From contig JACPPR010000030.1 of NCBI GenBank assembly GCA_016190895.1, forward strand, positions 241 through 64,240: a stretch of 64,000 nucleotides of DNA, read 5' to 3'. Positions 3,403 through 56,089 of the stretch are shown in pieces (the stretch's first letter is position 1; each line of letters opens with the position of its first letter). The notes below the pieces were generated by a model. The model was not told the origin of the DNA. It did no database searches and saw nothing but the letters and a program-made list of their open reading frames with translations. The stretch is from Chloroflexota bacterium (GTDB lineage: Bacteria > Chloroflexota > Dehalococcoidia > Dehalococcoidales > UBA2162). The position numbers and the translations under genes were made by a program.

Positions 3403-3410
3403 ATCCAGGG

Positions 3411-3491
3411 AAAATCCCTCTGTATCTCTCTTTACGAAAGGGAGAGGCCGGGGCTCTCCCCCTTTGTCAAAGGGGGATAAAAGGGGGATTT
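3411..3491. mobile_element. MITE-like repeat family 1 (TIR AAATCCCYC / GRGGGATTT, internal CCCTTTnnnAAAGGG hairpins), copy a
   Basis: Fills the aroE-aroK spacer. Hairpins at 3427-47 and 3456-78. Confidence 0.8.
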
Positions 3492-10050: not shown

Positions 10051-10137
10051 TTTCTAACACTTCGTTAGCAACCCCAACCATACCGACGCAAGTCGGTATC
10101 CAGAGGTGGGGCTTGATTCCGGCTTTCGCCGGAATGG
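10051..10137. repeat. ATACCGAC-hairpin / GATTCCGG-hairpin repeat family
   Basis: TTCGTTAGC..AACCATACCGACgcaaGTCGGTATCCAGAGG...GATTCCGGCtttcGCCGGAATGG. Confidence 0.75.
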
Positions 10138-10176
10138 AACGCAGCAGGCTCATAACGTTATTTCGGATACACCACA

Positions 10177-11378: not shown

Positions 11379-11491
11379 AAATCCCCCTTTTTCAAAGGGG
11401 GATACCTAAAGCGAAAGTGGCCAACGGCAAGGCATCTCCCTTTGTAAAGAGCCTGCCCCGTACTTGATACGGGGGAGATAGAGAGGGATTT
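11379..11491. mobile_element. Family 1 repeat, copy b
   Basis: Shares GGGGGATACCTAAA and GGCATCTCCCTTTGT blocks with copies d and g, and AAAGAGCCTGYCCCGT with copy c. Confidence 0.8.
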
Positions 11492-16168: not shown

Positions 16169-16299
16169 GGTCTCCCCTTTGAAAAAGAGCCTGTCCCGTG
16201 CTCGACACGGGACTAAGGGGGATTTAAGGTCCCAAAATCCCTCTCTTTCTCCCTTTTCCAAAGGGAGATGCCTTATTAGGGGAAGGGTCAGGAGGGATA
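16169..16299. mobile_element. Family 1 repeat, copy c (two abutting partial units)
   Basis: Lies in the pheS-pheT spacer. Confidence 0.7.
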
Positions 16300-18740: not shown

Positions 18741-18823
18741 AAATCCCCCTAATCCCCCTTTTTCAAAGGGGGAGGTTCGAGTGTAGGCATCTCCCTTTGT
18801 CAAAGGGAGAATGAGAGGGATTT
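18741..18823. mobile_element. Family 1 repeat, copy d
   Basis: Lies between convergent pheT and proS. The right TIR overlaps the proS stop. Confidence 0.8.
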
Positions 18824-20513
18824 AACCCACAAGCTCCCTTAGCTTGCTAACCGCCTCCTCCACCCCTACCAACTCCGCCTGTTTTTCCGAGCGGCGTTTG
18901 ACCTCAATGCTGTTCTTTTCCAGCGAGCGCGGGCTGATGGTCACCCGGAAGGGGATGCCCAGCAGGTCGGCATCATTGAACTTTACCCCCGGCGATTCCT
19001 GGCGGTCATCTAAGAGGACTTCTAATCCGGCTGCGGTAAGGTCGGCATACAGCTTCTCGGTTACTTCCGCAACCTTAGAACCTTCCCGGTAGAGTGGGCA
19101 AAGATGAATCTGATATGGGGCGACCGAAGCCGGCCATATGATGCCCTTGTCATCGTGATGGTGCTCGATGATGGCGGCGAGCAGCCGGCTGGGGCCGATG
19201 CCGTAGCAGCCCATGATAATCGGCTTAGACTGGCCGTCTTTGTCTATGAAGCTCGCGCCGAGCTTCGCTGAATAAAACGTGCCCAGCTTGAAGATGTGCC
19301 CAAGCTCCAGGCTGCAGCTGGAGGCCAGCTTGCCGCCGCACCTCGGGCAGGTATCCCCGGCGCGGGCTTTGGCGATATCGGTAATGATGTCCGCCTTGAA
19401 ATCCCGCGGGTAGTTGACGTTCTTGATGTGCGTGGCGGGCTTGTTGCCGCCAGCGATAAAGTTCGTGCCTGAGCTTACTGAATCGTCGGCGATAATCTGA
19501 ATGTCTTTGATGCCCACGGGTGAAGCCGCCCCGGGTACCAGACCGGCTTCCTTCACCTCGTCCTCCGTGGCCATTCGGAGGTCTGTGCAGTGCAGGGCGT
19601 TTTTCAGCTTGGTCTCGTTCACCTCGAGGTCGCCCCGGATAACGCCGAAGACAAAGTTCTTATCCGCCACGTAGAAGACGGCTTTCAGTGTGCGGGAGTG
19701 GGGAACTTTGAGAAAATCGGCGACTTCTTCGATGGTCGCCTTGCCCGGCGTGGCGACTTCCTCGATGGGCAGCAACTCTTCGCTATGCGCTATGCTCTTG
19801 GCGCTCGCCGCCTTCTCGGTGTTGGCGGCGTAGCCGCAGGAACAGTGGATAATCTCATCCTCGCCAGAATCAGTGACGAGCATGAACTCTTTCGATTCTT
19901 TGCCGCCAATAGCCCCGCTATCCGCCTCTACGAGCACGGTAGGCAGGCCGCAGCGGTCGAAGATGTTCTGGTAAGCTACGCGCATCTTCTCGTAGCTGAT
20001 GTCCAGCCCAGCCTCATCGGCATCGAAGCTATAGAGGTCTTTCATGGCGAACTCGCGCGCCCGCACCAGTCCGGCGCGGGGGCGGGGTTCATCGCGGAAC
20101 TTGGTCTGGATTTGGTACAGGAGTTGGGGCAGGTCGCGGTAGCTCTGCACGTTGTATTTCACAAGCTCGGTGATGACCTCTTCGTGAGTTGGCCCCATGG
20201 CAAGCTGGCGGTCACGGCGGTCCTTGAGGGTGAAAAGGATTTGTCCCAGCGCGCCGTGGCGCCCGGTCTGCTGCCAGAGCTCGAGGGGCTGGAGTACGGG
20301 CATCATCAGCTCCTGCCCGCCGGCCTTGTCCATCTCATCGCGGATGATGTTCTCGATTTTGTTCAACGCCCGCAAGGCCAGCGGCAGGTAGGAATAGACG
20401 CCGGCGGCAATCTGGCGTATCATGCCCGCCCTCAAAAGCAGCTGGTGGCTGGCTGTATCCGCCTCGGCGGGGAGCTCTCTCTGGGTTTTACCGAACAGTT
20501 GCGATATGCGCAT
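18822..20513 (-). CDS. proS: Proline--tRNA ligase (bacterial type with INS editing domain)
   Basis: 563 aa, starting MRISQLFGKTQRELPAEAD...; class II motifs; convergent with pheT. Confidence 0.94.
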   Translation of the reverse strand: MRISQLFGKTQRELPAEADTASHQLLLRAGMIRQIAAGVYSYLPLALRALNKIENIIRDEMDKAGGQELMMPVLQPLELWQQTGRHGALGQILFTLKDRRDRQLAMGPTHEEVITELVKYNVQSYRDLPQLLYQIQTKFRDEPRPRAGLVRAREFAMKDLYSFDADEAGLDISYEKMRVAYQNIFDRCGLPTVLVEADSGAIGGKESKEFMLVTDSGEDEIIHCSCGYAANTEKAASAKSIAHSEELLPIEEVATPGKATIEEVADFLKVPHSRTLKAVFYVADKNFVFGVIRGDLEVNETKLKNALHCTDLRMATEDEVKEAGLVPGAASPVGIKDIQIIADDSVSSGTNFIAGGNKPATHIKNVNYPRDFKADIITDIAKARAGDTCPRCGGKLASSCSLELGHIFKLGTFYSAKLGASFIDKDGQSKPIIMGCYGIGPSRLLAAIIEHHHDDKGIIWPASVAPYQIHLCPLYREGSKVAEVTEKLYADLTAAGLEVLLDDRQESPGVKFNDADLLGIPFRVTISPRSLEKNSIEVKRRSEKQAELVGVEEAVSKLRELVG

Positions 20514-21182: not shown

Positions 21183-21239
21183 ATTGAGCTACCCGTCATT
21201 TCTCTACATTCCGGCGAAGGTTAATTGACGGTCTAGGAG

Positions 21240-21278
21240 AAAATCCCTCTCAATCTCCCTTTGCGAAAGGGAGAGGCC
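21240..21278. mobile_element. Family 1 repeat, half copy e
   Basis: AAAATCCCTCTCAATCTCCCTTTGCGAAAGGGAGAGGCC. Confidence 0.6.
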
Positions 21279-21826
21279 TACCCCTCGTTCTGCCTAATGT
21301 TAATGGCGGCCTTCAGCAGGGCTAGCTCGCCTGGCTCGATATCCATTGCCAGCGCTTCTGCGATGGGGTGGAACTCTACTCCGTGAACGTATTCATCAGC
21401 GATGGTGGCTTTCGGGAAATGTTTGTCCGCCTGAGCGGTGTAGATAAGCCAGATGAAGTCAGGATAGGGGTAGGCATAGCCGGCGGGTTTGGGACCGAGG
21501 TGGTGAAAGTGCATGAAGCCGAGGGGTCGGTTGTCTTTGAGAGTCCAGCCGGTCTCCTCGAGAAGCTCCCGGCGGAGTGTTTCCTCTATGGACTCGCCTT
21601 TTTCGCATCGTCCTCCGGGGGTTATGTAGAACTCATTCTTCCCATTATCCACGACAAGCACCTTATCACCACGAAAAACGATAGCCCGCACGGAACTGAC
21701 GTATTGCGCCGGCGGCTGTTCAGCGTTTTGATAACAAGCGATTTCGAGGGGCATATCGCCCCACTTGGTGGTGCCTTCGGCGAGTAACTTGCCGGAGGCG
21801 AGAAAGGCGGAGAGGTCTGGGTTCAT
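21278..21826 (-). CDS. Nudix hydrolase
   Basis: Nudix box GGRCEKGESIEETLRRELLEETG. Confidence 0.85.
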   Translation of the reverse strand: MNPDLSAFLASGKLLAEGTTKWGDMPLEIACYQNAEQPPAQYVSSVRAIVFRGDKVLVVDNGKNEFYITPGGRCEKGESIEETLRRELLEETGWTLKDNRPLGFMHFHHLGPKPAGYAYPYPDFIWLIYTAQADKHFPKATIADEYVHGVEFHPIAEALAMDIEPGELALLKAAINIRQNEG

Positions 21827-21865: not shown

Positions 21866-22753
21866 TTATTTAGCGTTGCGCCGATGTTCAATAATTTCAT
21901 TACCGAGCTTTTTCCAATCGTCCAGTGTGCTCCAGAGCGTATCCAGTGCCCACAATGAGGCTCCAATGATGAATATGATGAGCACTGAGCCCATACCCTT
22001 CGGGAGAAACTGGAGCATGAATATCAGCACACCAAGTAAGGTGAATGTCAAACCGGTTGCCTTTGCTATCAGGCGCGTATATCTAAACAGTTGGCGCAAT
22101 TTCTCTCGCATACTCGGCCCTCCAAGTGAGAATTTGTCTTGGTTCAAAATTTCTTTGAATGTTCTTGGGAGAATCTGTTCCCTGTCTAGTTCTTGAAGCA
22201 GGTTAATCCCTTCGTTTTCGACGGACTCTCTGTAAAATATTACAGGCGTGCCGTTTTTCTTGAAAGTGTCTAAAGAAAGTCTAGTGTAGCCTTCAAAGTA
22301 ATTAGCAAAATGACCTCGGCGCTCACGCGCTTTCTTGACATACTTATGTAGCCGATACCAACAACGTAATGACGTAGTTCCAGCATAAGCCTCGACTGCT
22401 AAGCTTCTATCAATATATTTCTTGTATACCAGCAATCCCAATATGTTAAATCGGGAAATCAGGTGTTCTATGATTTGCCTTTCTGTTTGATTCCCCGGTT
22501 CCGCATAATCATTGGGTAAACTATAAATGGCGCTGCGAAGTTGTTGCATTGAATCTTCGTCGCGTAGCTCTCTGAACCAGTCCATGGCAATTTGAACTTG
22601 TGTGTTACGTTTTGATTCCCGTATCTGCAATATGGCGACGACTATTCCCAGTGCCAGAACTAGAGTCGCGAGAGCATATACAGCCGTCCAGAATACCAAC
22701 GGTTCCGTCCAAAATACCAGCGGATTGGCTTGTGCGGTAGCAGTGACGTTCAC
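21866..22753 (-). CDS. Hypothetical membrane protein (1 N-terminal + 2 C-terminal TM helices), low GC
   Basis: 295 aa. The GTG start overlaps the ispG stop (GTGA). N-terminal tandem PLVFWTE/PLVFWTA. No family recognised with confidence. Confidence 0.6.
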   Translation of the reverse strand: MNVTATAQANPLVFWTEPLVFWTAVYALATLVLALGIVVAILQIRESKRNTQVQIAMDWFRELRDEDSMQQLRSAIYSLPNDYAEPGNQTERQIIEHLISRFNILGLLVYKKYIDRSLAVEAYAGTTSLRCWYRLHKYVKKARERRGHFANYFEGYTRLSLDTFKKNGTPVIFYRESVENEGINLLQELDREQILPRTFKEILNQDKFSLGGPSMREKLRQLFRYTRLIAKATGLTFTLLGVLIFMLQFLPKGMGSVLIIFIIGASLWALDTLWSTLDDWKKLGNEIIEHRRNAK

Positions 22754-23886
22754 AGCCTTCCCACCTCCCCCATCAGAACGCGAACGAAATCTGCTTCCTG
22801 AACCACCCCGATTTTTTTGCCTTTTTTGAAGAGGATTGCCATGCCTTTGCCGCAGGCGATGCCGATATCGGCATCCATGGCTTCGCCGGGGCCGTTGACG
22901 GCGCAGCCCATGACGGCGACCTTGATAGGCTTGTCAATCTTTAATAGCTCTTTCTCGACTGCTTCGGCGATGGGGATGAGGTCTACCTCGGTGCGGCCGC
23001 AGGAGGGGCAGCTAACCAGCACCGGTCCGTGCTGGCGCAGGTTCAGGCTTTTCAGGATTTCGTAGCCGGCGATGACCTCTTCCTTCGGCGGGGCGGTGAG
23101 GGAAACGCGGATGGTATCCCCGATGCCCATTGCGAGCAGCGTGCCGATGCCGACGGCGCTGCGGATGATGCCCGTGCGGGGCGTGCCCGCCTCCGTGATG
23201 CCGATGTGGAGGGGGTAGGGGATTTTTTCCGCGATGTCTCTGTAAGCTTCTATTGTGGTAGGCACATCGAAGGCTTTCAGGGAGACCTTGATGAGGTCGA
23301 AATCGAGGCTTTCCAGTAGCCGTACCTGCTCCAGGGCGGCCTCGACCATATTGCGAGCGATAGACGATATTGTCATTCCCTGCGAAGGCAGGGAATCCAG
23401 AGGAGGAACGGGAGGGTTGGATTCTCCGGTCAAGCCGGAGAATGACAATTCTGAACTGCCGAGGCTGGCTTTTTTAGGCAAACTACCCGCATTCACCCCG
23501 ATGCGGATGGGGACGCTCCGCTCTTTGGCCGCTTTGACCACTGCTTTGACTCTTTCCGGGTCGCTGATATTGCCGGGGTTAAGGCGCAGGCCGTCCACGC
23601 CCGCCTTGAGCGCGGCCAGAGCCAGGCGGTAATCGAAATGGATATCGGCAATCAGTGGAATTCTGATGCCTTTCTTGATGCCCGCGAGCGCCTCGGCGGC
23701 CTGCATATCCGGCACGGCGACGCGGATTATCTCGCAATCGGCCTCCTCAAGCTCCTTAATCTGGGCGATTGTTGACATAACATCATGGGTATCGGTGTTG
23801 GTCATCGATTGGACGGAGATGGGGGCTGTGCCCCCCACACTAACATCACCAATCTGTATCTGTTTTGAAAGCCTGCGGGAAATCAT
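22750..23886 (-). CDS. ispG: HMBPP synthase (GcpE/IspG) carrying an in-frame 81-nt repeat insert
   Basis: IQIGDVSVGG, VQSMTNTDT, CPSCGRTEVD and MGCAVNGPGEA. Start moved to ATG 23886 (SD GGGGAGGGG). Confidence 0.92.
   Translation of the reverse strand: MISRRLSKQIQIGDVSVGGTAPISVQSMTNTDTHDVMSTIAQIKELEEADCEIIRVAVPDMQAAEALAGIKKGIRIPLIADIHFDYRLALAALKAGVDGLRLNPGNISDPERVKAVVKAAKERSVPIRIGVNAGSLPKKASLGSSELSFSGLTGESNPPVPPLDSLPSQGMTISSIARNMVEAALEQVRLLESLDFDLIKVSLKAFDVPTTIEAYRDIAEKIPYPLHIGITEAGTPRTGIIRSAVGIGTLLAMGIGDTIRVSLTAPPKEEVIAGYEILKSLNLRQHGPVLVSCPSCGRTEVDLIPIAEAVEKELLKIDKPIKVAVMGCAVNGPGEAMDADIGIACGKGMAILFKKGKKIGVVQEADFVRVLMGEVGRL
23369..23449. mobile_element. 81-nt palindromic repeat inserted in frame in ispG
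   Basis: 9-bp perfect TIR ATTGTCATT / AATGACAAT. Internal hairpins ATTCCCTGC-gaa-GGCAGGGAAT and TTCTCCGG-tcaa-GCCGGAGAA. Confidence 0.8.
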
Positions 23887-23896
23887 AGTTCCCCTC

Positions 23897-23950
23897 CCCG
23901 AAAAATCCAAATGTCAAAATCCAAATGCCAAGTAAAGCTCAAAGCTCTAC
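23897..23950. repeat. AT-rich CAAAT/ATTTG word repeat
   Basis: AAATCCAAATGTCAAAATCCAAATGCCAAGTAAAGCTCAAAGC. Confidence 0.6.
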
Positions 23951-23952
23951 CT

Positions 23953-24051
23953 AAATCCCTCCCAGCCTCCCTTTACGAAAGGGAGGTGCCAGATGCTGCC
24001 ATCCTCGTCTCAGGCATCCCTCTTTCGTAAAGAGGGACAGGAGGGAGATTT
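23953..24051. mobile_element. Family 1 repeat, copy f
   Basis: Lies in the ispG-rseP spacer. Confidence 0.8.
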
Positions 24052-27094: not shown

Positions 27095-27190
27095 TTTGCC
27101 TATTATACCATCTTAAATTCTAAGCACGAAATCCGAAACTCTAAACAAGTTCAAATTTCAAAGCTCAAATGTCAAAAAAATGATATGTCC
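27095..27190. repeat. AT-rich word repeat, left arm
   Basis: CTAAGCACGAAATCCGAAACTCTAAACAAGTTCAAA matches the reverse complement of 56873-56910. CAAAGCTCAAATG is inverted at 27331-43. Confidence 0.65.
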
Positions 27191-27290
27191 AAAATCCTCC
27201 TTCAGTCCCCCTTTACAAAAGGCGATACCTAAAACTGAAGAGGGTCGCAGTAGGCATCTCCCTTTATTAAAAGGAGAAGGAGAGGGATTT
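27191..27290. mobile_element. Family 1 repeat, copy g
   Basis: Lies in the cdsA-uppS spacer, nested between inverted AT-rich arms. Confidence 0.8.
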
Positions 27291-27350
27291 AGCTTTAAGC
27301 ATTTGGATTTCATTTGTAATTTGGATTTTGGCATTTGAGCTTTCGGTGAA
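27291..27350. repeat. AT-rich word repeat, right arm
   Basis: CATTTGGATTTCATTTGTAATTTGGATTTTGGCATTTGAGCTTTC. Confidence 0.65.
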
Positions 27351-28076
27351 TCATAGTCCGCCGAAGCGTCTGTGCCTGCGGCCGTAGGATAATAGCGCTT
27401 TATCGATATCCTTTTCACCAAAATCGGGCCAGAGGACTTCGGTAAAATGGTACTCGCTGTAGGTCGTTTGCCAGAGTAGGAAATTGCTGAGGCGGAATTC
27501 GCAGCCCGTGCGGATGAGCAGGTCGACATCGGGCAGGCCGGCTGTGTAAAGGTAGTTGCCGAACGTCTCTTCGTTGATTTTTTCGGGGGGGACGCCTTCG
27601 GCGATGAGGCGGCGTACCGCGTCCAGTATCTCGGTGCGCGCTCCGTAGTTGAAGGCGACGCTCAGGGTCATCCCGGAATTATTTTTGGTAAGCTCGATGG
27701 CATCGGTGATGGCTAGTTGCAGACTTTTGGGCAGCTCATTAAGCCGGCCGAGGTGGCGGAGCTTGATGCCCGCCCGATGAATTTCCGGGGCAGTTCTCCC
27801 TATAAAGGCCTCGAGTAACTTGAAGAGACCGGTAACTTCGGCTTTAGGGCGGTTCCAGTTTTCCGTAGAGAAGCCGTACAAGGTGACATACTTTATGGGG
27901 TATTCATTAAGGTATTTGACGATGTGGCGCATGTTGTCAGTGCCGGACTGATGGCCGCTAAGTCTGGGCAAGCCACGCTGCTCTGCCCATCTGCCGTTGC
28001 CGTCCGGAACAATAGCGATGTGCTCAGGGAGCCGACTGAATTTCTGAGTCTTTGGTGCGTCAGCCATCATCCTCAC
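27351..28076 (-). CDS. uppS: Undecaprenyl diphosphate synthase
   Basis: IAIVPDGNGRWA and RLSNFLLWQ; GTG start. Confidence 0.93.
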   Translation of the reverse strand: MRMMADAPKTQKFSRLPEHIAIVPDGNGRWAEQRGLPRLSGHQSGTDNMRHIVKYLNEYPIKYVTLYGFSTENWNRPKAEVTGLFKLLEAFIGRTAPEIHRAGIKLRHLGRLNELPKSLQLAITDAIELTKNNSGMTLSVAFNYGARTEILDAVRRLIAEGVPPEKINEETFGNYLYTAGLPDVDLLIRTGCEFRLSNFLLWQTTYSEYHFTEVLWPDFGEKDIDKALLSYGRRHRRFGGL

Positions 28077-28190
28077 GAAACAAGTTCAAATATCAAAATC
28101 CAAAGTTCAAATAAAATCCAAATGTCCTAATGTCAAAATTTCTTGCCAGTATCGTTTGGCCTTTGAGCTTTGGCATTTGGATTTTGTTTA
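28077..28190. repeat. AT-rich word repeat, imperfect palindrome
   Basis: AAAATCCAAAG..AAATCCAAATG / TTTGAGCTTTGGCATTTGGATTTTG. Confidence 0.65.
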
Positions 28191-41503: not shown

Positions 41504-43009
41504 TTGTTTATGAAAGACCGCTTATCGGACACGATGGAATCAGTGAAATCTACCTTGTCTCCGTTAGCGCCGCTGGTCAAGCGGCGCTGGTTCAAAGGAC
41601 TGGTAATGGCGTTCATTCTGTTCGGGGCTTTCTGGGGATTGCCGGCTATCGCCCGCGCCGCCGACCCGACCGGCACGGATACTTTTAACGCTAATCCCAA
41701 CAGCGCCGTCAATATGGCCTGGACGCTCATCACCGGTTTCCTGGTCTGGTTTATGCAGCTCGGTTTCGCCTTCCTGGGCGCCGGTCTGATTCGCTCCAAG
41801 AATCAGACTAACTACTGGACGAAGAGCTTTATGGATTTTTGTATCGCCTCGCTGGGCTTCTGGGCATTTGGGTTCGCCCTGATGTTCGGAGGCTCGAAGT
41901 TATTTCCCGGCCTAGATGACGGTAATGCGTGGATAGGTTTTTCCGGGTTTTTCCTGAGCGGCGGCGCCTATGATGTCTCGACGATTATGATGTGGTTCTT
42001 CCAGATGGTCTTTGCCGCTACCGCCACGACTATCGTTGCCGGCGCCGTGGCCGAAAGGATGAAGATTTCTGCCTACCTGGCTTACGCCTTTATTATCGGC
42101 GCTCTTATTTATCCTCTCTATGGTAAGTGGATATGGGGTGGCGGGTGGCTGGGCAGCTTAAGTATTGCTGGCGCTGCGGGCGCCAGAGACTTTGCTGGCT
42201 CCAGCGTCGTTCACATGGTCGGCGGATTGGCTGCCCTGATTGGTGCGGCTATGGTCGGACCGAGAATCGGCAGATTCAATAAGGATGGGACGCCCAATAA
42301 CATCAAAGGTCATAACCTGCCTTTTGTCGTTATCGGTACCTTCATCCTTTTCTTCGGCTGGTTCGGTTTTAATCCCGGCAGCACCCTGGCGGCTACCGAC
42401 CTGCGTATCTCGGTCATCGCTGTCAATACTTTCCTGGCCGGCGTTACCGGCGCGGTAGTAGCGCTCTACTGGGTTTTTGCCAAGACCGGCAAGATGGATA
42501 TCATCATGGGCTGCAACGGTAGTCTGGTCGGGCTGGTCGCCGTTACTGCGCCGGCGGCCTATATCGCTCCGTGGGCGGCAGTGCTCATCGGAGCGATAGC
42601 GGTTCCATTCATGTTTGCCACGAATCATGTTGTTGAGCGTGTGCTCAAGGTAGACGATGCCGTAGGCGCCGTCCCGGTGCACCTGGGTGGAGGGATGTGG
42701 GGCATGCTGGCAGTGGGTATTTTCGCCGATGGAACCTATCTAGGGGTCAAGGGACTCATTGCCGGTGAGATAGGCCAGCTAATCCTGCAACTAGTCGCCA
42801 TCGGGACTGTGTTTGTCTGGGTGGGCGTAACGGCCTTCCTTACCTTCTGGGCTATCAGAAAGAGCATCGGTCTGCGGGCTAGCCGTGAAGAAGAGCTGCA
42901 GGGGCTGGATATACCAGAGCACGGCATAGAAGCCTATCCGGCTGATTCCAGTATCACTTTAGGCGGAAGTACTCCTGTTGTTCCAAAGGCGCTCCCGGTT
43001 ACTCGTTAA
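41504..43009 (+). CDS. amt: Ammonium transporter (long form with signal-peptide-like N-terminus)
   Basis: AGSSVVHMVGG and FGWFGFNPGS. Start is TTG 41504 or ATG 41510, after AGGAGG. Confidence 0.92.
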   Translation: MFMKDRLSDTMESVKSTLSPLAPLVKRRWFKGLVMAFILFGAFWGLPAIARAADPTGTDTFNANPNSAVNMAWTLITGFLVWFMQLGFAFLGAGLIRSKNQTNYWTKSFMDFCIASLGFWAFGFALMFGGSKLFPGLDDGNAWIGFSGFFLSGGAYDVSTIMMWFFQMVFAATATTIVAGAVAERMKISAYLAYAFIIGALIYPLYGKWIWGGGWLGSLSIAGAAGARDFAGSSVVHMVGGLAALIGAAMVGPRIGRFNKDGTPNNIKGHNLPFVVIGTFILFFGWFGFNPGSTLAATDLRISVIAVNTFLAGVTGAVVALYWVFAKTGKMDIIMGCNGSLVGLVAVTAPAAYIAPWAAVLIGAIAVPFMFATNHVVERVLKVDDAVGAVPVHLGGGMWGMLAVGIFADGTYLGVKGLIAGEIGQLILQLVAIGTVFVWVGVTAFLTFWAIRKSIGLRASREEELQGLDIPEHGIEAYPADSSITLGGSTPVVPKALPVTR

Positions 43010-43022
43010 CATCAAGAAAGTC

Positions 43023-43055
43023 GGGTACCGCCCCGACATTATCGGGGCGGTACCC
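43023..43055 (+). repeat. Perfect 14-bp stem hairpin after amt1
   Basis: GGGTACCGCCCCGA-catta-TCGGGGCGGTACCC with no T-run. Confidence 0.6.
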
Positions 43056-43200
43056 ACGACCATTAAGCCGGATTCTCCTATCTCAAAGGAAAACAAATGC
43101 TTGAGTTAAGCCAGATTGCAGCAGTTGTTATTTTCGTGGCAATCCTCCATGCCCCGATTGCATCGGGGCACCACGAAGTATGAAAATCGGTCACGAGGAT

Positions 43201-43322
43201 GTCGTCATTCTGGCACGTTCACTTCGTTCAGTGTAAACTCCGGCCAGAATCCACTTCATCACACTCCACTGGATTCCAGCCGGAGTTTACCCCGTACTGC
43301 GATACGGGGCTGGAATGACGGA
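43201..43322. repeat. Composite repeat in the amt1-amt2 spacer
   Basis: Shares CACGTTC..TTCAGTGTAAACTCC with 13383-13410, plus GGATTCC...GGAATGAC ends. Confidence 0.6.
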
Positions 43323-43393
43323 CGGTGGCAGGCTTTTCGTGAGAATGTTTATTGCTATCGTCTACCTTTGGGTTCTGAGTTTTCAGTTTTCTT

Positions 43394-43431
43394 GTAACAT
43401 GTTTTTAACATATCCGTAATATGCTGGAAAC
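43394..43431 (+). promoter_or_regulatory. Four 11-bp phased boxes upstream of amt2
   Basis: GTAAC 43394, TTAAC 43405, GTAAT 43416, GAAAC 43427. Same order as the last four boxes of the amt1 site. Confidence 0.6.
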
Positions 43432-43471
43432 ACTAATGGCATAAGCTGGATGTAAAAGCAAGGAGGAACTT

Positions 43472-44704
43472 ATGCCCATTAATTCCGGTGATACTGCCTG
43501 GATACTGGTTTCGGCAGCCCTGGTGATGCTGATGACGCCGGGGCTGGCTCTTTTCTATGGGGGGATGGTGAGACGGAAGAACGTGCTCTCCACCATGATG
43601 ATGAGCTTCGCCATGCTCGGTCTGGTCGGCATTCTCTGGGTGCTCTATGGGTACAGTTTGAGCTTCGCTCCTGATATAGGTGGCATCATCGGCGGTTTTG
43701 ACTTCTTAGGACTCAAGAATGTCGGGCAGGACCCGTCATCGGTCTATGCCACCACCGTTCCTCACCTGGCCTTTATGATATATCAGGCGATGTTTGCCAT
43801 AATTACCGTCGCCTTATTTACGGGAGCCGTTGTCGACAGGATAAAATTCAGCGCATTGCTTGTCTTTTCGGCTCTGTGGTTGACCCTCATTTACGTTCCG
43901 GTGGCGCACTGGGTGTGGGGCGGCGGGTGGCTGGCGAAGCTGGGCGCCCTCGATTTTGCCGGCGGCACCGTGGTTCATATCAATGCCGGTGTCTCGGCGC
44001 TGGCTTTAGCCCTGCTCCTGGGACCCCGTAAGGGTTTTAAGGACAAGGAGCCTATGGAGGCCCACAATATTCCCTGGGTAATGCTGGGCGCGGGCTTGCT
44101 CTGGTTCGGTTGGTTCGGCTTTAACGCCGGCAGCGCTCTCACGGCTGGCGGGTTGGCTTCCAGCGCATTCGTTGCTACCAATACTGCTGCCGCCAGCGCC
44201 GCTTTCACCTGGATGCTGCTGAGCTGGATTTACCGACGTCCGACGGCTTTGGGAACGGTCACCGGCGCCGTTATCGGACTGGTGGCCATTACTCCTGCGG
44301 CCGGCTTTGTTGCACCGATAATGGGCATTCCCATAGGTATGGGGGCAGCCCTGGTCGGCTATTATGCCATGCTTGTCCGGGCAAAAACGCGGGTGGACGA
44401 TTCTCTGGATGTCCTGGCCTGCCATGGGATGGGGGGTATCTGGGGAGCTTTAGCGACCGGTATTTTTGCCAGCGTCGCTGTCAATTCAGCCGGAGCCGAC
44501 GGCCTGATTTTTGGTAATGCTATGCTGGTCGTCAAACAATTGGTTGCTATCGTCGCCGTTGGAGTCTTTGCCTTCGTCGGCACCTGGATTTTGGGCAAGC
44601 TCGTCGATATCACTATCGGGCTTCGAGTTAGTCCTACTGAAGAAAATCTGGGTCTTGATATATCCCAGCACGGTGAAAGAGCTTATGGAGGGCTTGCACG
44701 ATAA
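43472..44704 (+). CDS. amt: Ammonium transporter
   Basis: 410 aa with DFAGGTVVHINAG and FGWFGFNAGS. Confidence 0.94.
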   Translation: MPINSGDTAWILVSAALVMLMTPGLALFYGGMVRRKNVLSTMMMSFAMLGLVGILWVLYGYSLSFAPDIGGIIGGFDFLGLKNVGQDPSSVYATTVPHLAFMIYQAMFAIITVALFTGAVVDRIKFSALLVFSALWLTLIYVPVAHWVWGGGWLAKLGALDFAGGTVVHINAGVSALALALLLGPRKGFKDKEPMEAHNIPWVMLGAGLLWFGWFGFNAGSALTAGGLASSAFVATNTAAASAAFTWMLLSWIYRRPTALGTVTGAVIGLVAITPAAGFVAPIMGIPIGMGAALVGYYAMLVRAKTRVDDSLDVLACHGMGGIWGALATGIFASVAVNSAGADGLIFGNAMLVVKQLVAIVAVGVFAFVGTWILGKLVDITIGLRVSPTEENLGLDISQHGERAYGGLAR

Positions 44705-44736
44705 TCACCTGAATAACAAACAAAAATATGATTGGT

Positions 44737-44764
44737 GTAGGGGCGCAGCATGCTGCGCCCCTAC
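44737..44764. repeat. Same palindrome family
   Basis: GTAGGGGCGCAGCATGCTGCGCCCCTAC, between amt2 and amt3. Confidence 0.85.
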
Positions 44765-44805
44765 GGAACGGCGGCATGTCTGAAGGTCAAATATTTTATC
44801 TCTTT

Positions 44806-44821
44806 GTAACATGTTCGTAAC
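44806..44821 (+). promoter_or_regulatory. Two GTAAC(AT) direct repeats 11 bp apart upstream of amt3
   Basis: GTAAC at 44806 and 44817. Confidence 0.45.
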
Positions 44822-44871
44822 ATTAGTGGGCTAAACTGCATTTGTAGAATATACAAAGGGAAGGGGAAGTT

Positions 44872-46104
44872 ATGCCCATTAATTCCGGTGATACTGCCTG
44901 GATATTGGTCTCGGCAGCCCTGGTTATGCTCATGACTCCAGGGCTGGCTCTTTTCTACGGGGGGATGGTGCGGCGGAAGAACGTGCTTTCGACTATGATG
45001 ATGAGCTTTGCCATGCTGGGTTTGGTCGGCCTTCTCTGGGTGCTTTATGGCTATAGCCTGAGCTTCGCTCCTGATATGAGTGGCATCATCGGCGGTTTTG
45101 ACTTTATGGGTTTGCGGAACGTTGGACAGGAACCGTCCTCGGTTTATGCCACCACTGTTCCTCACCTGGCCTTTATGATATATCAGGCGATGTTCGCTAT
45201 CATCACTGTCGCCCTCTTCACCGGAGCCGTTGTGGACAGGATAAAGTTCGGCGCTCTGCTGGCGTTCTCAGCCTTGTGGCTGACATTCATCTATACGCCA
45301 GTGGCGCACTGGGTGTGGGGTGGTGGCTGGCTGGCAAAGCTGGGCGTTCTGGACTTCGCCGGCGGCGTGGTAGTTCACATCAATGCCGGTATGTCGGCTT
45401 TGGCTCTGGCTTTGCTGCTGGGTCCCCGCAAGGGTTTTGTTGAAAAGGAACCGATGGAAGCGCACGATATTCCTATGGTGATGCTGGGGGCAGGGTTGCT
45501 CTGGTTCGGCTGGTTCGGCTTCAATGCCGGCAGCGCCTTCACTGCCGGCGGGCTGGCCTCCAGCGCCTTTGTGGCTACGAATACGGCCGGGGCCGCCGCT
45601 GCCTTTACCTGGATGCTGCTTAGCTGGATATACCGCAGACCGACGGCTCTTGGGACAGTCACCGGGGCTGTTATCGGGCTGGCTGCGGTCACTCCGGCCG
45701 CCGGTTTTATCTCGCCGATAATGGGAATACCCATCGGCATCGGGGCGGCGCTGGTTGGGTACTATGCTATGCTTTTCCGGTCGAAATCACGTGTCGATGA
45801 TTCCCTGGATGTTATGGCTGCTCACGGTATGGGTGGTATCTGGGGAGTGCTGGCGACAGGCATATTTGCCAGTGTGGCTGTCAATGCGGCGGGAGCCGAT
45901 GGGCTTATCTTCGGAAACGGAGCGCAGTTACTGAAGCAGATGGCTGGCGTTGTTGCCGTCGGCGGCTTTTCTTTTATCGGGACGCTGATTTTGGGCAAGC
46001 TCGTCGATGCTACTATCGGTCTTAGAGTTACCCGCACTGAAGAGAATTTGGGCCTTGATATATCTCAGCATGGTGAAAGAGCTTATGGAGGGTTGGGAAG
46101 ATGA
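44872..46104 (+). CDS. amt: Ammonium transporter (tandem paralogue of the previous gene)
   Basis: 410 aa; by eye roughly 85-90 percent identical to amt2. Confidence 0.94.
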   Translation: MPINSGDTAWILVSAALVMLMTPGLALFYGGMVRRKNVLSTMMMSFAMLGLVGLLWVLYGYSLSFAPDMSGIIGGFDFMGLRNVGQEPSSVYATTVPHLAFMIYQAMFAIITVALFTGAVVDRIKFGALLAFSALWLTFIYTPVAHWVWGGGWLAKLGVLDFAGGVVVHINAGMSALALALLLGPRKGFVEKEPMEAHDIPMVMLGAGLLWFGWFGFNAGSAFTAGGLASSAFVATNTAGAAAAFTWMLLSWIYRRPTALGTVTGAVIGLAAVTPAAGFISPIMGIPIGIGAALVGYYAMLFRSKSRVDDSLDVMAAHGMGGIWGVLATGIFASVAVNAAGADGLIFGNGAQLLKQMAGVVAVGGFSFIGTLILGKLVDATIGLRVTRTEENLGLDISQHGERAYGGLGR

Positions 46105-46478
46105 AAAAAATAGAAGCTATCATTCGGGAAGAAAGGTTGGAACCTGTCAAACAGGCTCTGGAGGCCGGGGGTTACTTCGCTATGACTGTCACCGAGGTGA
46201 GCGGGCGTGGCGAGCAAAGGGGGCTTACCCTACCCTGGCGAGTCGGAGAGTATCGGGTCGATTTACTGCCTAAACTCAAACTTGAGATTGTCGTTCAGGA
46301 TAAAGAGGTCGATACGATAGTCAAAGCGATTATTGACAATGCCCGGACTGGTGAGATTGGCGATGGTAAGATATTTATCATACCAGTAGAAAACGCAATC
46401 CGCGTCCGCACCAACGAGGATGGCGACAAAGCAATCAATAAAGTAACAAACAATAAGGAGGAAGCAAAGACAAAATGA
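46101..46478 (+). CDS. glnK: PII nitrogen regulatory protein (GlnK-type, amt-linked)
   Basis: TVTEVSGRGEQRG T-loop with conserved Tyr (VGEY) and GDGKIFI. ATGA overlaps on both sides. Confidence 0.92.
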   Translation: MKKIEAIIREERLEPVKQALEAGGYFAMTVTEVSGRGEQRGLTLPWRVGEYRVDLLPKLKLEIVVQDKEVDTIVKAIIDNARTGEIGDGKIFIIPVENAIRVRTNEDGDKAINKVTNNKEEAKTK

Positions 46479-47890
46479 ATTCAACGGAAGTCATAAAGTT
46501 TGCTAAAGAGAAGGGCTGTCAGTTTGTCGACCTCAAGTTCATCGACCTGCCCGGCACCTGGCAGCATTATACTCTGCCTATCAGCGAGCTAAATCAGGAC
46601 CTCTTCGAGGAGGGTAACGGTTTTGACGGTTCTTCGATAAGGGGCTTTCGGCATATCAACGAAAGCGATATGTTGCTGATTCCCGACCCGGCGACGGCTA
46701 TCTGCGACCCGGTACTGGAAGTGCCGACATTGAGCCTGATTTGCGACGTGCGTGACCCGCTCACGGGCAAGGACTACGAGCGTGACCCGCGTAATATCGC
46801 CAAGAAGGCTGAAGCTTATCTGAAGACGACGGGCATTGCCGAGGGTAGTTACTGGGGTCCCGAACTGGAATTTTTCATATTCAACAGCATACGTTTCGAG
46901 CAAAACAGCCATGTCGGCTTCTATGCCATCGATTCCCAGGAGGGCATCTGGAACTCAGGTAATGGCGAGCACAGTAATCTGGGCTACCGCCCCCGTCACA
47001 AGGAAGGCTACTTCCCGGTGCCGCCTACCGACCAGACACACGATATCCGTACTAAAATCGCCCTCAAAATGATGGAGGGTGGTTTGAAGATTGAAAAGCA
47101 TCATCATGAGGTTGCCACTGCCGGACAGGCTGAGTTCGGTATCCGCTTCGATACCCTGACCAGGCAGGCGGATAATGTTATGCTCTACAAGTACATTGCT
47201 AAGAACGTGGCTGTGCAGAATGGCTTTACGGTGACATTCATGCCCAAGCCGCTTTTCCAGGACAATGGTTCAGGAATGCACGTACATCAGAGTCTCTTCA
47301 AGGGCGACAAGAACGTTTTCTACGATGCGAAGGGCTATGCCCTGCTTTCCCAGACGGCTAAACATTATATAGGCGGGCTGCTGGCACATTCACCGGCTTT
47401 GCTGGCGCTCTGCGCTCCGACCACCAACTCTTACCGCCGGCTCGTCCCCGGTTACGAGGCTCCCATCAATCTGGTTTACTCGGCAAGTAACCGCAGCGCC
47501 AGCATTCGTATTCCTCAGTACTCGACCAGTCCGAAGACCAAGAGAATCGAGTACCGCTGCCCGGATTCGAGCAGCAATCCGTATCTGGCCTTCGCCGCCA
47601 TGCTGCTGGCTGGCCTGGATGGCATCAAGAATAAGATTGACCCCGGCGAGCCTATCGACAAGGATATTTATGAGCTTGCGCCGGAAGAAAAGGCCAATAT
47701 CAAGTCAACGCCCGGCTCACTGCTCGAGGTACTGGATGCCCTCCGCGAAGACCATGATTTCCTTCTGAAGGGTGATGTCTTTACCGAGGACCTCATCGAG
47801 ACCTGGATAAACTACAAGAGAAAGAATGAGTATGACCAGGTCGCCCTGCGACCCCATCCCTACGAGTTCCATCTGTACTACGATATTTAG
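46475..47890 (+). CDS. glnA: Glutamine synthetase type I (471 aa)
   Basis: FDGSSIRGF, GSGMHVHQSLF, NSYRRLVPGYEAP. Confidence 0.95.
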   Translation: MNSTEVIKFAKEKGCQFVDLKFIDLPGTWQHYTLPISELNQDLFEEGNGFDGSSIRGFRHINESDMLLIPDPATAICDPVLEVPTLSLICDVRDPLTGKDYERDPRNIAKKAEAYLKTTGIAEGSYWGPELEFFIFNSIRFEQNSHVGFYAIDSQEGIWNSGNGEHSNLGYRPRHKEGYFPVPPTDQTHDIRTKIALKMMEGGLKIEKHHHEVATAGQAEFGIRFDTLTRQADNVMLYKYIAKNVAVQNGFTVTFMPKPLFQDNGSGMHVHQSLFKGDKNVFYDAKGYALLSQTAKHYIGGLLAHSPALLALCAPTTNSYRRLVPGYEAPINLVYSASNRSASIRIPQYSTSPKTKRIEYRCPDSSSNPYLAFAAMLLAGLDGIKNKIDPGEPIDKDIYELAPEEKANIKSTPGSLLEVLDALREDHDFLLKGDVFTEDLIETWINYKRKNEYDQVALRPHPYEFHLYYDI

Positions 47891-51050: not shown

Positions 51051-52386
51051 TAAAGATAGGGCTGAATCCTGCGGTTATGTCCTGAAAATGGCCAAGGAGC
51101 ATGATGTCAAGTTCATCAGGCTCTGGTTCACCGATATCCTTGGGGTCCTGAAAAGCTTTGCCATTACTGTAGAAGAGCTTGAAGAGGCTCTGGCCGAGGG
51201 GAAGGGGTTCGATGGCTCTTCTATCGAGGGCTTCGCCCGCATCGATGAAAGCGATATGGTGGCCCTGCCCGACCCGGATACCTTCCGTCTGATTCCCTGG
51301 CGGCCACGGGAACACCACGCCGTCGCCCGTATGTTCTGCGACGTCCTTAAACCGGGCGGGCAGATTTTCGAGGGCGACCCGAGATATGTCCTCAAGAGAA
51401 ATCTGAAACGGGCTGCCGAATTGGGCTATACCTACTACGTCGGCCCCGAGTTGGAGTTTTTCTATTTCAAGAGCGCCAATGCCACTGAGACTCTGGATGC
51501 CGGCGGCTATTTCGACCTGATGCCGTTGGATGTCGCCACCGACCTGAGGCGAGATACGGTTCTCACCCTCGAAGAGATGGGCATCGGCGTCGAGTATTCC
51601 CATCACGAAGTGGCGCCCAGCCAGCATGAAATAGATATGAGGTATACCGATGCCCTGACTATGGCTGATAATGTCATGACCTACCGCCTGGTCGTGAAGC
51701 AAATCGCTCTGCAGCACGGCGTCTACGCCACCTTTATGCCCAAGCCGGTTTTCGGTATCAATGGCAGCGGTATGCACGTTCACCAGTCTCTCTTTAAGGG
51801 TGGCAAGAATGCCTTCTTCGATAGGAAAGACAAATATTACCTGTCTAAATTAGCCAAGGGCTACATTGCTGGCTTGCTGAAACATGCCCCCGAAATCACC
51901 TCTGTTACCAGTCAGTGGGTCAATTCTTACAAGCGGCTGGTGCCTGGCTATGAGGCGCCGGTCTATCTCTCCTGGGCGCGGCGCAACCGTTCTGATTTGA
52001 TTCGAGTTCCCGAGTATAGGCCGGGCCGGGAAAACGCCACGCGCATCGAGTACCGCTCGCCGGACCCGGCTTGCAACCCCTACCTCACCTTCAGTGTTAT
52101 GCTGGCTGCCGGGCTGGATGGGATTGAAAAGGGATTGGAACCGCCTGAGCCGGTCGAAGAAAACGTCTACGAGATGTCCGAAGAGGAAAGAAAAGCGAGA
52201 GGAATAGTGACTTTACCCTCTAGCCTTGCTGAGGCTATCGAGCTGACCGAGAAAAGTGAGTTGGTGAGAAAAGCCCTCGGCGACCATGTTTTCAATGCTT
52301 TTATTGCCAATAAAAAGATAGAGTGGGATAACTACCGCACTCAGGTGACCGAATACGAAATTAAGAGGTACCTGCCTATATTGTAA
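51043..52386 (+). CDS. glnA: Glutamine synthetase type I (447 aa, alpha-like)
   Basis: FDGSSIEGF, GSGMHVHQSLF, NSYKRLVPGYEAP; GTG start. Confidence 0.93.
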   Translation: MSAKDRAESCGYVLKMAKEHDVKFIRLWFTDILGVLKSFAITVEELEEALAEGKGFDGSSIEGFARIDESDMVALPDPDTFRLIPWRPREHHAVARMFCDVLKPGGQIFEGDPRYVLKRNLKRAAELGYTYYVGPELEFFYFKSANATETLDAGGYFDLMPLDVATDLRRDTVLTLEEMGIGVEYSHHEVAPSQHEIDMRYTDALTMADNVMTYRLVVKQIALQHGVYATFMPKPVFGINGSGMHVHQSLFKGGKNAFFDRKDKYYLSKLAKGYIAGLLKHAPEITSVTSQWVNSYKRLVPGYEAPVYLSWARRNRSDLIRVPEYRPGRENATRIEYRSPDPACNPYLTFSVMLAAGLDGIEKGLEPPEPVEENVYEMSEEERKARGIVTLPSSLAEAIELTEKSELVRKALGDHVFNAFIANKKIEWDNYRTQVTEYEIKRYLPIL

Positions 52387-52560
52387 ATCCGAAATTCTAG
52401 TATCGAAATCCGAAACAAATCCAAATTACAAAATCCAAATGCCAAATAAAGCCTAAATGCTTGAATGCCAAGTTCACAAAGGGCGTGGTCATTTTAGCTT
52501 TGATATTTGGCATTTATTTGAACTTTGAGCTTTGGATTTTGAGTTTCGCCGGAGGTCATT
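52387..52560. repeat. AT-rich word repeat, long imperfect palindrome
   Basis: CAAAATCCAAATGCCAAATA ... TATTTGGCATTT ... TTTGGATTTTG. Confidence 0.7.
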
Positions 52561-54405: not shown

Positions 54406-55401
54406 ATGGTGCAAAAAATCAGTTCTGACGGGGAAAGGAAGCTCCTGGCGATTCTGAAGGTGCTTAGTGAATCTTCAGAACCGCTCGGTTCGGCCACCAT
54501 CGCCCGCGAGCTTGAGCGCTACGGCATTTACCTGAGCGAGCGCGGGGTCAGGTATAACCTGAAGCTAGCCGATGAGCGCGGCTATACCCAGCCGATGGGC
54601 CGTGACGGGCGGATGATTACCACTCAGGGCTTGCAAGAACTGACGGCGGCGCTGGCTCCCGAGCGGGTTGGTTTCGTCCTCGAAAAACTGGAACTGCTTG
54701 CCTTTCAGACCACTTTCGACCCGGCAAAACGCACCGGCCGGGTGCCGATAAATACCTCGCTCATCGATAAGAGCCAGTTCAAGAAAGCGCTCGCGGTAAT
54801 GGGCGCCGCTTTCAAGGCCGGAATCTGCGTCAGCGACCTGGTGGCTACCGCCTCAGAGGGTGAAAAGCTCGGCTCGGTAGTCGTGCCCCCTGGTAAAATC
54901 GGCCTGGCGACAGTCTGCAGCGCCACCATTAACGGCGTGCTGCTAAAAGCTGGCGTGCCCGTCGAGTCGAAGTTCGGCGGCGTGCTTGAAGTCAGGAAAT
55001 CTCAGCCCAGCCGTTTTGTGGCTATCATCAACTATTCCGGCACCTCGCTCGACCCTTCCGAGCAGTATATCCGCGCCCGGATGACCAGCGTCGGCAAGGT
55101 CATCACTACCGGGAGTGGGCGGCTGCTGGCCAATTTCAGGGAGATGCCGGCCCTATCGAGGGCGCTGGCTGAGGAGAAAATCGCCCAACTCAAGGCGGCG
55201 GGGATTGGTGGGGTCTACGCCCTTGGCAATACCAGCGAGCCGCTCTGCCAGATTCCGGTCGGTCTCAACCGCGTGGGGATGGTGCTGCTGGGCGGCTTGA
55301 ATCCGATAACTCTCGCCGTCGAGGCAGGCATCGAGATTGACAACATCGCCGAAAGCGGGCTGGTTGATTTCGAGCGACTGGTTAGCTTTTGGAAAATTTA
55401 G
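54406..55401 (+). CDS. nrpR: NrpR-like nitrogen regulatory protein (wHTH + one NrpR/DUF128-type domain)
   Basis: 331 aa with LAILKVLSESSEPLGSATIARELERYGIYLSERGVRYNLKLADERGYT..GRDGRMITTQGLQEL and GLATVCSATINGVLLKAG. Family assignment is from memory of COG1693-type proteins. Confidence 0.7.
   Translation: MVQKISSDGERKLLAILKVLSESSEPLGSATIARELERYGIYLSERGVRYNLKLADERGYTQPMGRDGRMITTQGLQELTAALAPERVGFVLEKLELLAFQTTFDPAKRTGRVPINTSLIDKSQFKKALAVMGAAFKAGICVSDLVATASEGEKLGSVVVPPGKIGLATVCSATINGVLLKAGVPVESKFGGVLEVRKSQPSRFVAIINYSGTSLDPSEQYIRARMTSVGKVITTGSGRLLANFREMPALSRALAEEKIAQLKAAGIGGVYALGNTSEPLCQIPVGLNRVGMVLLGGLNPITLAVEAGIEIDNIAESGLVDFERLVSFWKI
55318..55401 (+). repeat. Direct repeat copy 1 (functional 3' end of nrpR)
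   Basis: 77/84 nt identical to 55985-56068, in register including the TAG stop. Confidence 0.9.
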
Positions 55402-55477
55402 GTGGGAAGTGTCATTCTGGAGTCCGACAAGTCGGGACGAAGAATCTCAGGGCGGGGGAGGCATTTCTATTTCAGTT

Positions 55478-55506: not shown

Positions 55507-55529
55507 CTTATTTGAAGAAGGTGACAGAA

Positions 55530-55960: not shown

Positions 55961-55984
55961 CTTCCCCGTGGTTTGGCTTCGGTC

Positions 55985-56068
55985 GTCGAGGCAGGCATCG
56001 AGATTGACAACATCGCCGAAAGCGGGTTGGTTGATTTTGAGCGACTGGTGAGCTTCTGGAGACTGTAG
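55985..56068 (+). pseudogene. Orphan duplicate of the last 27 codons of nrpR
   Basis: Encodes VEAGIEIDNIAESGLVDFERLVSFWRL*, versus ...FWKI* in nrpR. No upstream coding continuity. Confidence 0.85.
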
Positions 56069-56089
56069 AGGGGGGCTTGTTGTCATTCT

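Follow-up and report, generated by a model that had tools for sequence, protein, structure and literature searches.

A head-to-head dimer of CGTC-tagged palindromic repeats lies in frame within ispG of a Chloroflexota genome

How did a perfect palindromic repeat come to lie, in frame and open, inside the coding sequence of a conserved enzyme, and what has it meant for that enzyme? The question is raised by ispG (gcpE) in a 64-kb stretch of one contig of a Chloroflexota metagenome-assembled genome (MAG; Dehalococcoidales), referred to here as the window; these 64 kb are the part of the genome that we examined. IspG is an iron-sulfur enzyme of the methylerythritol phosphate (MEP) pathway of isoprenoid synthesis and a drug target in pathogens. 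According to an original prediction, an 81-nt palindromic segment (23369-23449) lies inside ispG and is a tolerated insertion of a miniature inverted-repeat transposable element (MITE). Sequence and open reading frame (ORF) agree with the in-frame, open segment, and we retain the view of a mobile palindromic repeat in an intact IspG. The element itself is a head-to-head dimer of CGTC-tagged repetitive extragenic palindromic (REP) units rather than a classical MITE. We consider it highly probable that this dimer was inserted in frame into ispG, is translated, and is tolerated as an extra loop, most likely with neutral or slightly deleterious effect.

The plus-strand sequence of the element is ATTGTCATTCCCTGCGAAGGCAGGGAATCCAGAGGAGGAACGGGAGGGTTGGATTCTCCGGTCAAGCCGGAGAATGACAAT (81 nt). 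Its terminal inverted repeat, described beforehand as perfect over 9 bp, is indeed perfect and is one base pair longer (ATTGTCATTC / GAATGACAAT, 10 bp); the AT found at both termini could be part of the repeat or a 2-bp duplication. The two hairpins that had been noticed within the segment are both perfect: hairpin 1 (ATTCCCTGC-GAAG-GCAGGGAAT, 23375-23396) has a 9-bp stem and a 4-nt loop, and hairpin 2 (ATTCTCCGG-TCAAG-CCGGAGAAT, 23421-23443) a 9-bp stem and a 5-nt loop. The gene, the element and its parts are the following.

22750-23886, minus strand: ispG (gcpE) coding sequence, identified by a 100% match to protein P0001, Pfam GcpE and GcpE_C, PDB 3NOY and Foldseek.
23369-23449, no strand assigned: the whole palindromic insert (81 nt), coding for residues 146-173 of IspG; two CGTC-type REP units are joined head to head, and the ends of the dimer form a perfect inverted repeat of 10 bp.
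23371-23399, plus strand: REP unit A, with tag TGTC (23371-23374), stem ATTCCCTGC (23375-23383), loop GAAG (23384-23387), stem GCAGGGAAT (23388-23396) and tail CCA (23397-23399).
23400-23417, no strand assigned: the 18 nt that separate the CCA tails, a spacer rich in C and T on the mRNA strand (ACCCTCCCGTTCCTCCTC) that codes for NPPVPPL.
23418-23447, minus strand: REP unit B, in minus-strand order TGTC ATTCTCCGG CTTGA CCGGAGAAT CCA.

The CCA tails thus face inward across the spacer and the TGTC tags outward, and the two halves have different stems, so that the element is a heterodimer. Folding z-scores of the 81-mer were -5.15 as DNA and -5.76 as mRNA strand (0 of 200 shuffles as stable), the mRNA-strand fold reaching -33.7 kcal/mol. 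In the frame of ispG the element reads ELSFSGLTGESNPPVPPLDSLPSQGMTI, flanked by GVNAGSLPKKASLGSS and SSIARNMVEAALEQV; it extends from the third base of E146 to the second base of I173 and gives the peptide (E)LSFSGLTGESNPPVPPLDSLPSQGMT(I), in which LSFSGLTGES and DSLPSQGMT stand on either side of the NPPVPPL of the spacer. Four of the six frames of the 81-mer are without a stop codon, that of ispG among them.

Other kinds of element were tried as identities for the segment and rejected. A tRNA relic, considered for the cloverleaf-like four-helix fold, was discarded since ARAGORN shows neither a tRNA nor a tmRNA. An intein, an intron and ribosomal bypass were discarded on the size of 27 codons (far below that of an intein), the open frame, and the result of an Rfam scan of the whole window, which gave no match at the gathering threshold.

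Comparison with other IspG proteins shows the segment to be extra. From GVNAGS to MVEAAL the window protein has 44 residues, as against 14 in the nearest Dehalococcoidia, and across 87 ispG loci drawn from genomes and metagenomes the interval measures 13-19 residues with few exceptions; almost all of the 120 best IspG homologues are 348 aa long. The shortfall of about 28 residues put forward for E. coli IspG at this point holds for proteobacterial-type loops (16 residues vs 44) and for Aquifex IspG (PDB 3NOY), which aligns as two blocks with query residues 139-176 facing chain residues 148-157 (38 vs 10). Outside the loop the window protein is 90-91.5% identical to P0002, P0003, P0004 and P0010. 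As had been anticipated, a loop equivalent to the insert is present in none of the relatives compared, either in the alignments or across the 87 loci. As the stems and the terminal repeat are free of mismatches and relatives that are ~90% identical lack the insert, the event would seem to be fairly recent.

What kind of element is it? CGTC-tagged REPs are defined by a CGTC tag (variants TGTC or CCTC), an 8-9-bp stem starting with A,T, a 4-5-nt loop and a CCA tail (Di Nocera, De Gregorio & Rocco 2013, BMC Genomics 14:522, PMC3733652), and they occur mainly as head-to-head dimers with the tags outside, mostly in intergenic positions (PMC3733652). In the ispG element both stems (ATTCCCTGC and ATTCTCCGG) are 9 bp, perfect and begin with AT, the loops are of 4 nt (GAAG) and 5 nt (CTTGA), both units carry TGTC as tag, and both end in CCA. 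Dispersed, mostly intergenic head-to-head dimers of this kind are found among metagenomic matches and at three further places in the window.

10076-10139, no strand assigned: intergenic head-to-head dimer with stems ATACCGAC and ATTCCGGC, 4-nt loops, tails CCA/CAA and degenerate tags AACC/TTCC; matches to covariance model R1 (see below) at E=0.017 and 0.031.
43203-43320, no strand assigned: intergenic dimer of this class, again head to head, with CGTC tags, stems ATTCTGGC / ATTCCAGCC, CCA tails and long loops of 26-28 nt containing GTAAACTCC; R1 E=0.002 and 0.36.
60417-60497, no strand assigned: intergenic head-to-head dimer with stems ATACCGAC and ATTCCGTG, 4-nt loops, CCA tails and degenerate tags AACC/TTCC; R1 E=0.084.

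The tags at 10076-10139 and 60417-60497 (AACC/TTCC) thus depart from the definition. Hairpin modules with ATT[CG] stems number 6 in the window and 0.22 in shuffles, a 27-fold excess, and every copy of the family in the window other than that in ispG is intergenic.

The wider family was traced with the pattern TGTCATTCTCNNNCTTGNNNNGAGAATCCA, derived from unit B and a similar unit in locus L018, a Dehalococcoidales MAG described below. It matches at least 120 metagenomic contigs, and the estimated number of chance matches for its 23 fixed bases is <1. Among the 124 matches listed, on which the counts that follow are based, the three stem pairs that the pattern leaves unconstrained are all complementary in 112, in different combinations (GGG/CCC in 41, TGG/CCA in 32, CCG/CGG in 28, and others). 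Unit B occurs 25 times as an exact 30-mer in the metagenomic loci retrieved, and 63 of the matches have a head-to-head partner hairpin with its tag outside (TGTC in 43, CGTC in 16, AGTC in 3, and one cut at the fragment end). These partner hairpins pair to 100%, partly by construction as perfect stems of >=7 bp were selected, and the covariation argument uses the three unconstrained pairs. The spacers of the metagenomic dimers are often C/T-rich, like that in ispG.

A covariance model, R1, was trained on the spacer and partner hairpin alone of 37 metagenomic dimers, none of them from the window and with the fished pattern excluded. In a scan of the window without filters it ranked the ispG element first and second: unit A plus spacer (23371-23415, minus strand; 36 bits, E=7e-7) and then unit B (23418-23447, plus strand; 26.8 bits, E=1e-4). 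These were followed by 43264-43320 (E=0.002), 10116-10136 (E=0.017), 10078-10118 (E=0.031) and 60419-60459 (E=0.084), making 43203-43320 the best intergenic relative of the ispG element within the window. Formal similarity to intergenic copies, on which the original prediction had staked its case, is thereby obtained for the family as a whole, with changes to the detail. The kinship proposed for 10051-10137 and 60391-60495 is weak: the architecture is shared, but the similarity in the model is marginal (E 0.017-0.084), and an alignment by MAFFT of the three copies then named is poor (63% mean column identity, few anchored columns). The motif put forward for the family, ATCCAGAGG, has to be given up, as it is not enriched (12 matches with <=1 mismatch vs 17.8 expected). 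In 1.28 Mb around ispG of 87 other genomes R1 found only four matches; the REP family is patchy, and comparatively dense in the window genome.

A search for other in-frame copies, which had been proposed as a check, was productive. Within ORFs extending at least 70 codons on both sides there are 5 of the 124 matches listed, and 3 of those 5 are in real genes. Locus L113 (2779-2850 region) has an in-frame dimer in a LepA-like translational GTPase, read ...SSSDLIRGSRNNKLDSRVKHENDN..., between the G2 region and the DTPGH motif, and L154 (1171-1200) and L178 (7261-7290) each have a single in-frame unit in a ManC-like nucleotidyl transferase, read MDSLVKPENDN; to these is added the IspG loop of L018. 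For the ispG dimer itself, a protein search with a 42-aa insert query gave no candidates for further in-frame copies, and an exhaustive phmmer search of 1.84 billion representatives with its peptide returned only a spurious tandem-repeat protein, P0125. The intergenic bias, with ~3 of the 124 listed matches in genes, fits random insertion followed by selection. Since four of the six frames are open and the lengths of the metagenomic dimers are not concentrated in multiples of three (of the 63 among the matches listed, 15, 22 and 26 fall in the residue classes modulo 3), the in-frame state is that of a survivor of selection in an essential gene and not a property of the element.

Several variants of these repeats were observed beside the family proper. 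In locus L103 (33-461) three copies of a REP unit stand ~200 nt apart with near-identical flanks, forming a tandem array of a longer REP-containing unit. The long-loop variant, as at 43203-43320 with its 26-28-nt loop inserts ending in GTAAACTCC, adjoins standard units in L092, L094 and L098, which suggests a nested or extended subfamily. Long palindromes of ~101-104 nt with CGTC or TGTC tags and arms ATTGCGAG...CTCGCAAT flank a UPF0261 gene at 62287-62389 and 63808-63913; others of this type were found in L017, L024 and L081 (Dehalococcoidia, Chloroflexota and Gastranaerophilales), and the type is probably sister to the family of the ispG element.

Where the insert would sit in the protein was judged from an AlphaFold2 model built on a 79-sequence alignment (mean predicted local distance difference test, pLDDT, 79). 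Residues 138-170, between strand 127-132 and helix 173-193, are modelled with pLDDT <50 and without secondary structure, and the insert residues are probably disordered. The remainder superposes on IspG structures (TM-score 0.92 over the barrel for 4MWA; E=1e-40 for 3NOY). By strand order the site in the model is the loop between strand 5 and helix 5 (beta5-alpha5) of the N-terminal triosephosphate isomerase (TIM) barrel. Going by TIM barrels in general and by the complexes of GcpE with methylerythritol cyclodiphosphate (MEcPP), we take this loop to be on the catalytic face of the barrel, against which the iron-sulfur domain of the partner subunit closes. The surface loop originally foreseen would accordingly be a disordered loop, though one on the catalytic face and not on just any surface, and to call it harmless is to interpret the model rather than to report a result.

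The same loop is expanded in other lineages. In the Dehalococcoidales MAG of locus L018 (JAFGHZ010000086.1, 10406-10451) it holds a single unit, TGTC|ATTCTCGGA|CTTGT|TCCGAGAAT|CCA, read MDSRNKSEND, in a loop of 21 residues; since this IspG is ~71% identical to that of the window while closer relatives are empty, the two inserts are most simply independent. P0010 (L001, 2241-2381) has 38 extra loop residues from a composite repeat, of which 29 nt match an intergenic site in L085. P0010 is 93% identical to the insert-free P0003 and P0005, closer than to the window protein, and we therefore regard its insert and that of the window as separate events. P0002 (L002, 5412-5471) carries a 12-residue low-complexity insert rich in GCAGAGA/GCAAAGA, and P0019, P0023, P0066 and P0090 share a 9-residue insert, PAKAWQAGL, encoded by a GC-rich hairpin (L087, 2617-2655). 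Insert-bearing and insert-free proteins are phylogenetically interleaved, and proteins that are 88-93% identical outside the loop hold at least four unrelated inserts (REP dimer, 38-residue composite, 12-residue low-complexity sequence and 9-residue GC hairpin). Apart from this repeated expansion of a single IspG loop, nothing in the case is unusual. That in this clade of Dehalococcoidia the loop is an insertional hot spot, beyond mere permissiveness, is a tentative suggestion that we hold to be rather unlikely; if insertion were indeed targeted, for example by local DNA structure or sequence, the locus would be a natural assay for how CGTC REPs move.

Such recurrence could also be taken as a sign that the insert has been selected for a function, with its mRNA hairpins modulating translation or decay of ispG, or with the loop altering partner binding or domain closure. 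No mismatch has yet entered the 9-bp stems or the 10-bp terminal repeat, and REPs are thought to act as RNA elements. A recent insertion explains the perfect stems equally well, however, and the inserts differ among lineages in both sequence and length (9, 12, 7, 27 and 38 residues), which points to permissiveness; most close relatives have no insert, and the peptide is predicted to be disordered. We regard a selected function as quite improbable.

Several observations weigh against insertion of a mobile dimer into a functional ispG, and some of them bear on how the palindrome arose. The excess over relatives is 30 residues and not the 27 that had been expected: the insert is absent from them as foreseen, and excising the 81 nt leaves LPKKASLGSSESSIARN, which is three residues longer than, and unlike, the usual LPKxxNPxxTxAQN. 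The difference arises because the flanks of the loop have diverged too. With the nearest insert-free relatives only ~90% identical and different in those flanks, an exact 27-residue empty site is not demonstrable; a metagenome scan with the lineage-specific left flank for an empty-site or identical allele gave no match, and the best match in a scan of genome contigs was 75% identical. No closer insert-free allele was found that would mark the exact boundaries of the insertion or a target-site duplication. The exact dimer, the unit A hairpin and the spacer have no second occurrence in the window, the 87 loci or the metagenomic matches listed, and blastn-short of the 81-mer against the window and the 87 loci returned the self-match only. 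No transposase domain was found in the ten ORFs neighbouring the element, and no dedicated transposase is known for the CGTC REP class (PMC3733652). On the catalytic face, an addition of 30 residues might not be innocuous. Finally, arrival by a transposition-like insertion, translation of the insert and continued activity of the enzyme are all three things that we infer, and the last two of these set limits to the reading as well.

Might the palindrome instead have formed in situ, by template switching, hairpin-primed repair or gene conversion from a nearby repeat? Neither a target-site duplication nor a transposase is demonstrable, the flanks differ from those of relatives by the three extra residues, and de novo formation of REPs was left open by Di Nocera et al. 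(PMC3733652). Against this, one half is identical over 30 nt to the 25 copies mentioned above, which lie in unrelated metagenomic contigs, and the layout of tag, stem, loop, tail, spacer and partner is shared with dozens of dimers elsewhere, as would not be expected of a local accident. Formation in place is hardly likely on this evidence.

The state of the gene and its surroundings bears on what is left. The annotated product is MBI2850188.1 (Chloroflexota MAG), of 378 aa with its start at 23886, to which the window ORF is 100% identical; the mechanical minus-strand ORF runs from 22750 to 23910. It has the Pfam domains GcpE and GcpE_C, matches PDB 3NOY with E=5e-97, and as a model finds IspG structures as its top Foldseek matches. 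Every alignment position that is invariant in 79 homologues is retained, those of the cluster ligands C293, C296, C328 and E335 among them; the frame is free of stops and frameshifts, and the gene stands in a conserved dxr-rseP-ispG cluster with a surrounding gene order that agrees with relatives. A repeat-induced chimera that placed an intergenic REP dimer into ispG during assembly is conceivable in a MAG, where repeats confuse assemblers and this protein occurs on one contig only in the collection searched; it is very improbable given collinear ispG sequence on both sides, the kept frame, the gene order, and analogous in-loop inserts in independent assemblies (L018, and the P0010 cluster with its NCBI and ENA members, of which a full-length one is from a separate ENA assembly). 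That ispG is here an inactivated pseudogene, its frame open by chance, is an idea that gains only from our judging function by sequence and from a single 64-kb stretch of the genome, and it is equally implausible beside the retained invariant columns, the 90-91.5% identity outside the loop, the unbroken frame and the conserved cluster.

We therefore return to in-frame insertion of the REP dimer, which would have run as follows. A non-autonomous palindromic repeat, a head-to-head dimer resembling the REPINs (paired REP units) discussed below, would have landed in ispG after the split from the ~90%-identical relatives. The net gain of 81 nt, a multiple of three without a stop, would let it be translated within IspG, where ~27 added residues would lengthen the loop between strand 5 and helix 5, probably in disordered form. 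The insert would have survived as this loop tolerates extra length, and it is most likely neutral or slightly deleterious rather than functional.

Other features of the window were observed along the way. Two further abundant families of intergenic repeats, a heptad-like AAATCCAAATGYCAA run and AAATCCCTC...CTCCCTTTnnnAAAGGGAG hairpins, fill many spacers of the housekeeping region, the sites given for the two being 23903-24037 (the ispG-rseP spacer), 27114-27342, 28076-28184, 52384-52546 and 56758-56914; AAATCCCTC...CTCCCTTTnnnAAAGGGAG hairpins are also present at 3410-3491, 11380-11402, 16233-16286, 18745-18824 and 21239-21281. Three ammonium-transporter genes stand in a row in the region 41504-47890, the last two (43472-44704 and 44872-46104) being recent duplicates with identical N-termini; next come a P-II-like ORF and a glutamine-synthetase-like one. 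The gap between the first and the second transporter gene holds the REP dimer at 43203-43320. The 3' end of an NrpR-like gene (54406-55401) is present twice, as direct repeats of 90 nt with 90% identity (55317-55406 / 55984-56073); between the two copies lie a HicB-like antitoxin (55512-55736) and a HicA toxin (55736-55960), an arrangement that looks like a toxin-antitoxin cassette inserted at the end of the NrpR-like gene with target duplication.

With this case, in-frame 'protein-coding palindromes', which are best known from Rickettsia, are met also in uncultured Chloroflexota and in an iron-sulfur enzyme of the MEP pathway, and the REP class concerned proves very common in environmental metagenomes. 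A single IspG loop that repeatedly takes foreign sequence could be useful as a permissive site in protein engineering and for the study of how orphan repeats spread. For annotation it carries a warning: odd low-confidence loops in conserved enzymes from MAGs can be repeat insertions and not errors.

How does the element compare with known systems? Intragenic CGTC dimers coding for 20-30 residues are already known (PMC3733652), and the nearest published subfamily is CGTC-1. Its encoded peptides (SFPRKRES, VIPAKAGI, DSRFRGND and IPAFAGMT; Additional file 3 of PMC3733652) fall in frames that correspond to those of the ispG element, SFSGLTGES being the counterpart of SFPRKRES and DSLPSQGMT that of DSRFRGND / IPAFAGMT. 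A CGTC-1 core that we back-translated from the published peptides, GTCATTCCCGCGAAAGCGGGAATCC, differs from unit A mainly by one base pair, which is extra in unit A, the stems of CGTC-1 having 8 bp and those of the ispG element 9 bp. Rickettsia palindromic elements (RPE) are likewise palindromes that lie in frame in conserved housekeeping genes and are translated and tolerated (Ogata et al. 2000, reviewed in PMC2229807 and PMC10969869); the ispG insert too lies in frame in a conserved gene, is absent from orthologues, and occupies a site compatible with the fold. A family link to these elements depends on the published equation of RPE-6 and RPE-4 of R. conorii with CGTC-1 and CGTC-4 repeats, respectively (PMC3733652). 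Classical RPE-1, in contrast, is 105-150 bp long, has its own conserved peptide and is specific to Rickettsia, whereas the ispG element is of 81 nt and comes from a free-living-type Chloroflexota MAG.

REPINs (Bertels & Rainey 2011, PMC3116915) similarly consist of two inverted REP hairpins and a short spacer forming one larger foldable unit, but they bear GTAG tags, as against TGTC here, and are tied to a REP-associated tyrosine transposase (RAYT) gene, encoding an IS200/IS605-like Y1 transposase, that has the same REPs on either side; a scan that covered part of the ORFs in the window showed no RAYT. Bacterial MITEs (ERIC, the 107-bp form of Correia, and YPAL; Delihas 2008, PMC2229807) are also small, with a terminal inverted repeat, a stable stem-loop transcript and open frames that fuse to host ORFs. 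They usually have a target-site duplication (often TA) and an insertion sequence (IS) with the same ends; neither is demonstrable for the ispG element, and the 64-kb window contains no IS. A literature search with the string GTCATTGCGAG returned unrelated primers only. CGTC repeats have been reported in Proteobacteria, Chlorobi, Bacteroidetes, Spirochaetes and Thermotogae, and not in Chloroflexi, and ispG is absent from the genes listed as interrupted by them (PMC3733652). The element in ispG thus consists of two CGTC-tagged REPs joined head to head, is REPIN-like in form and belongs to one class with RPE-4 and RPE-6, and in-frame insertion of such dimers into housekeeping genes has already been described (PMC3733652; reviewed in PMC2229807 and PMC10969869); the novelty here lies in the phylum of the host, in the gene that was hit, in how very widely the subfamily is spread in the environment and in the repeated use of one IspG loop.

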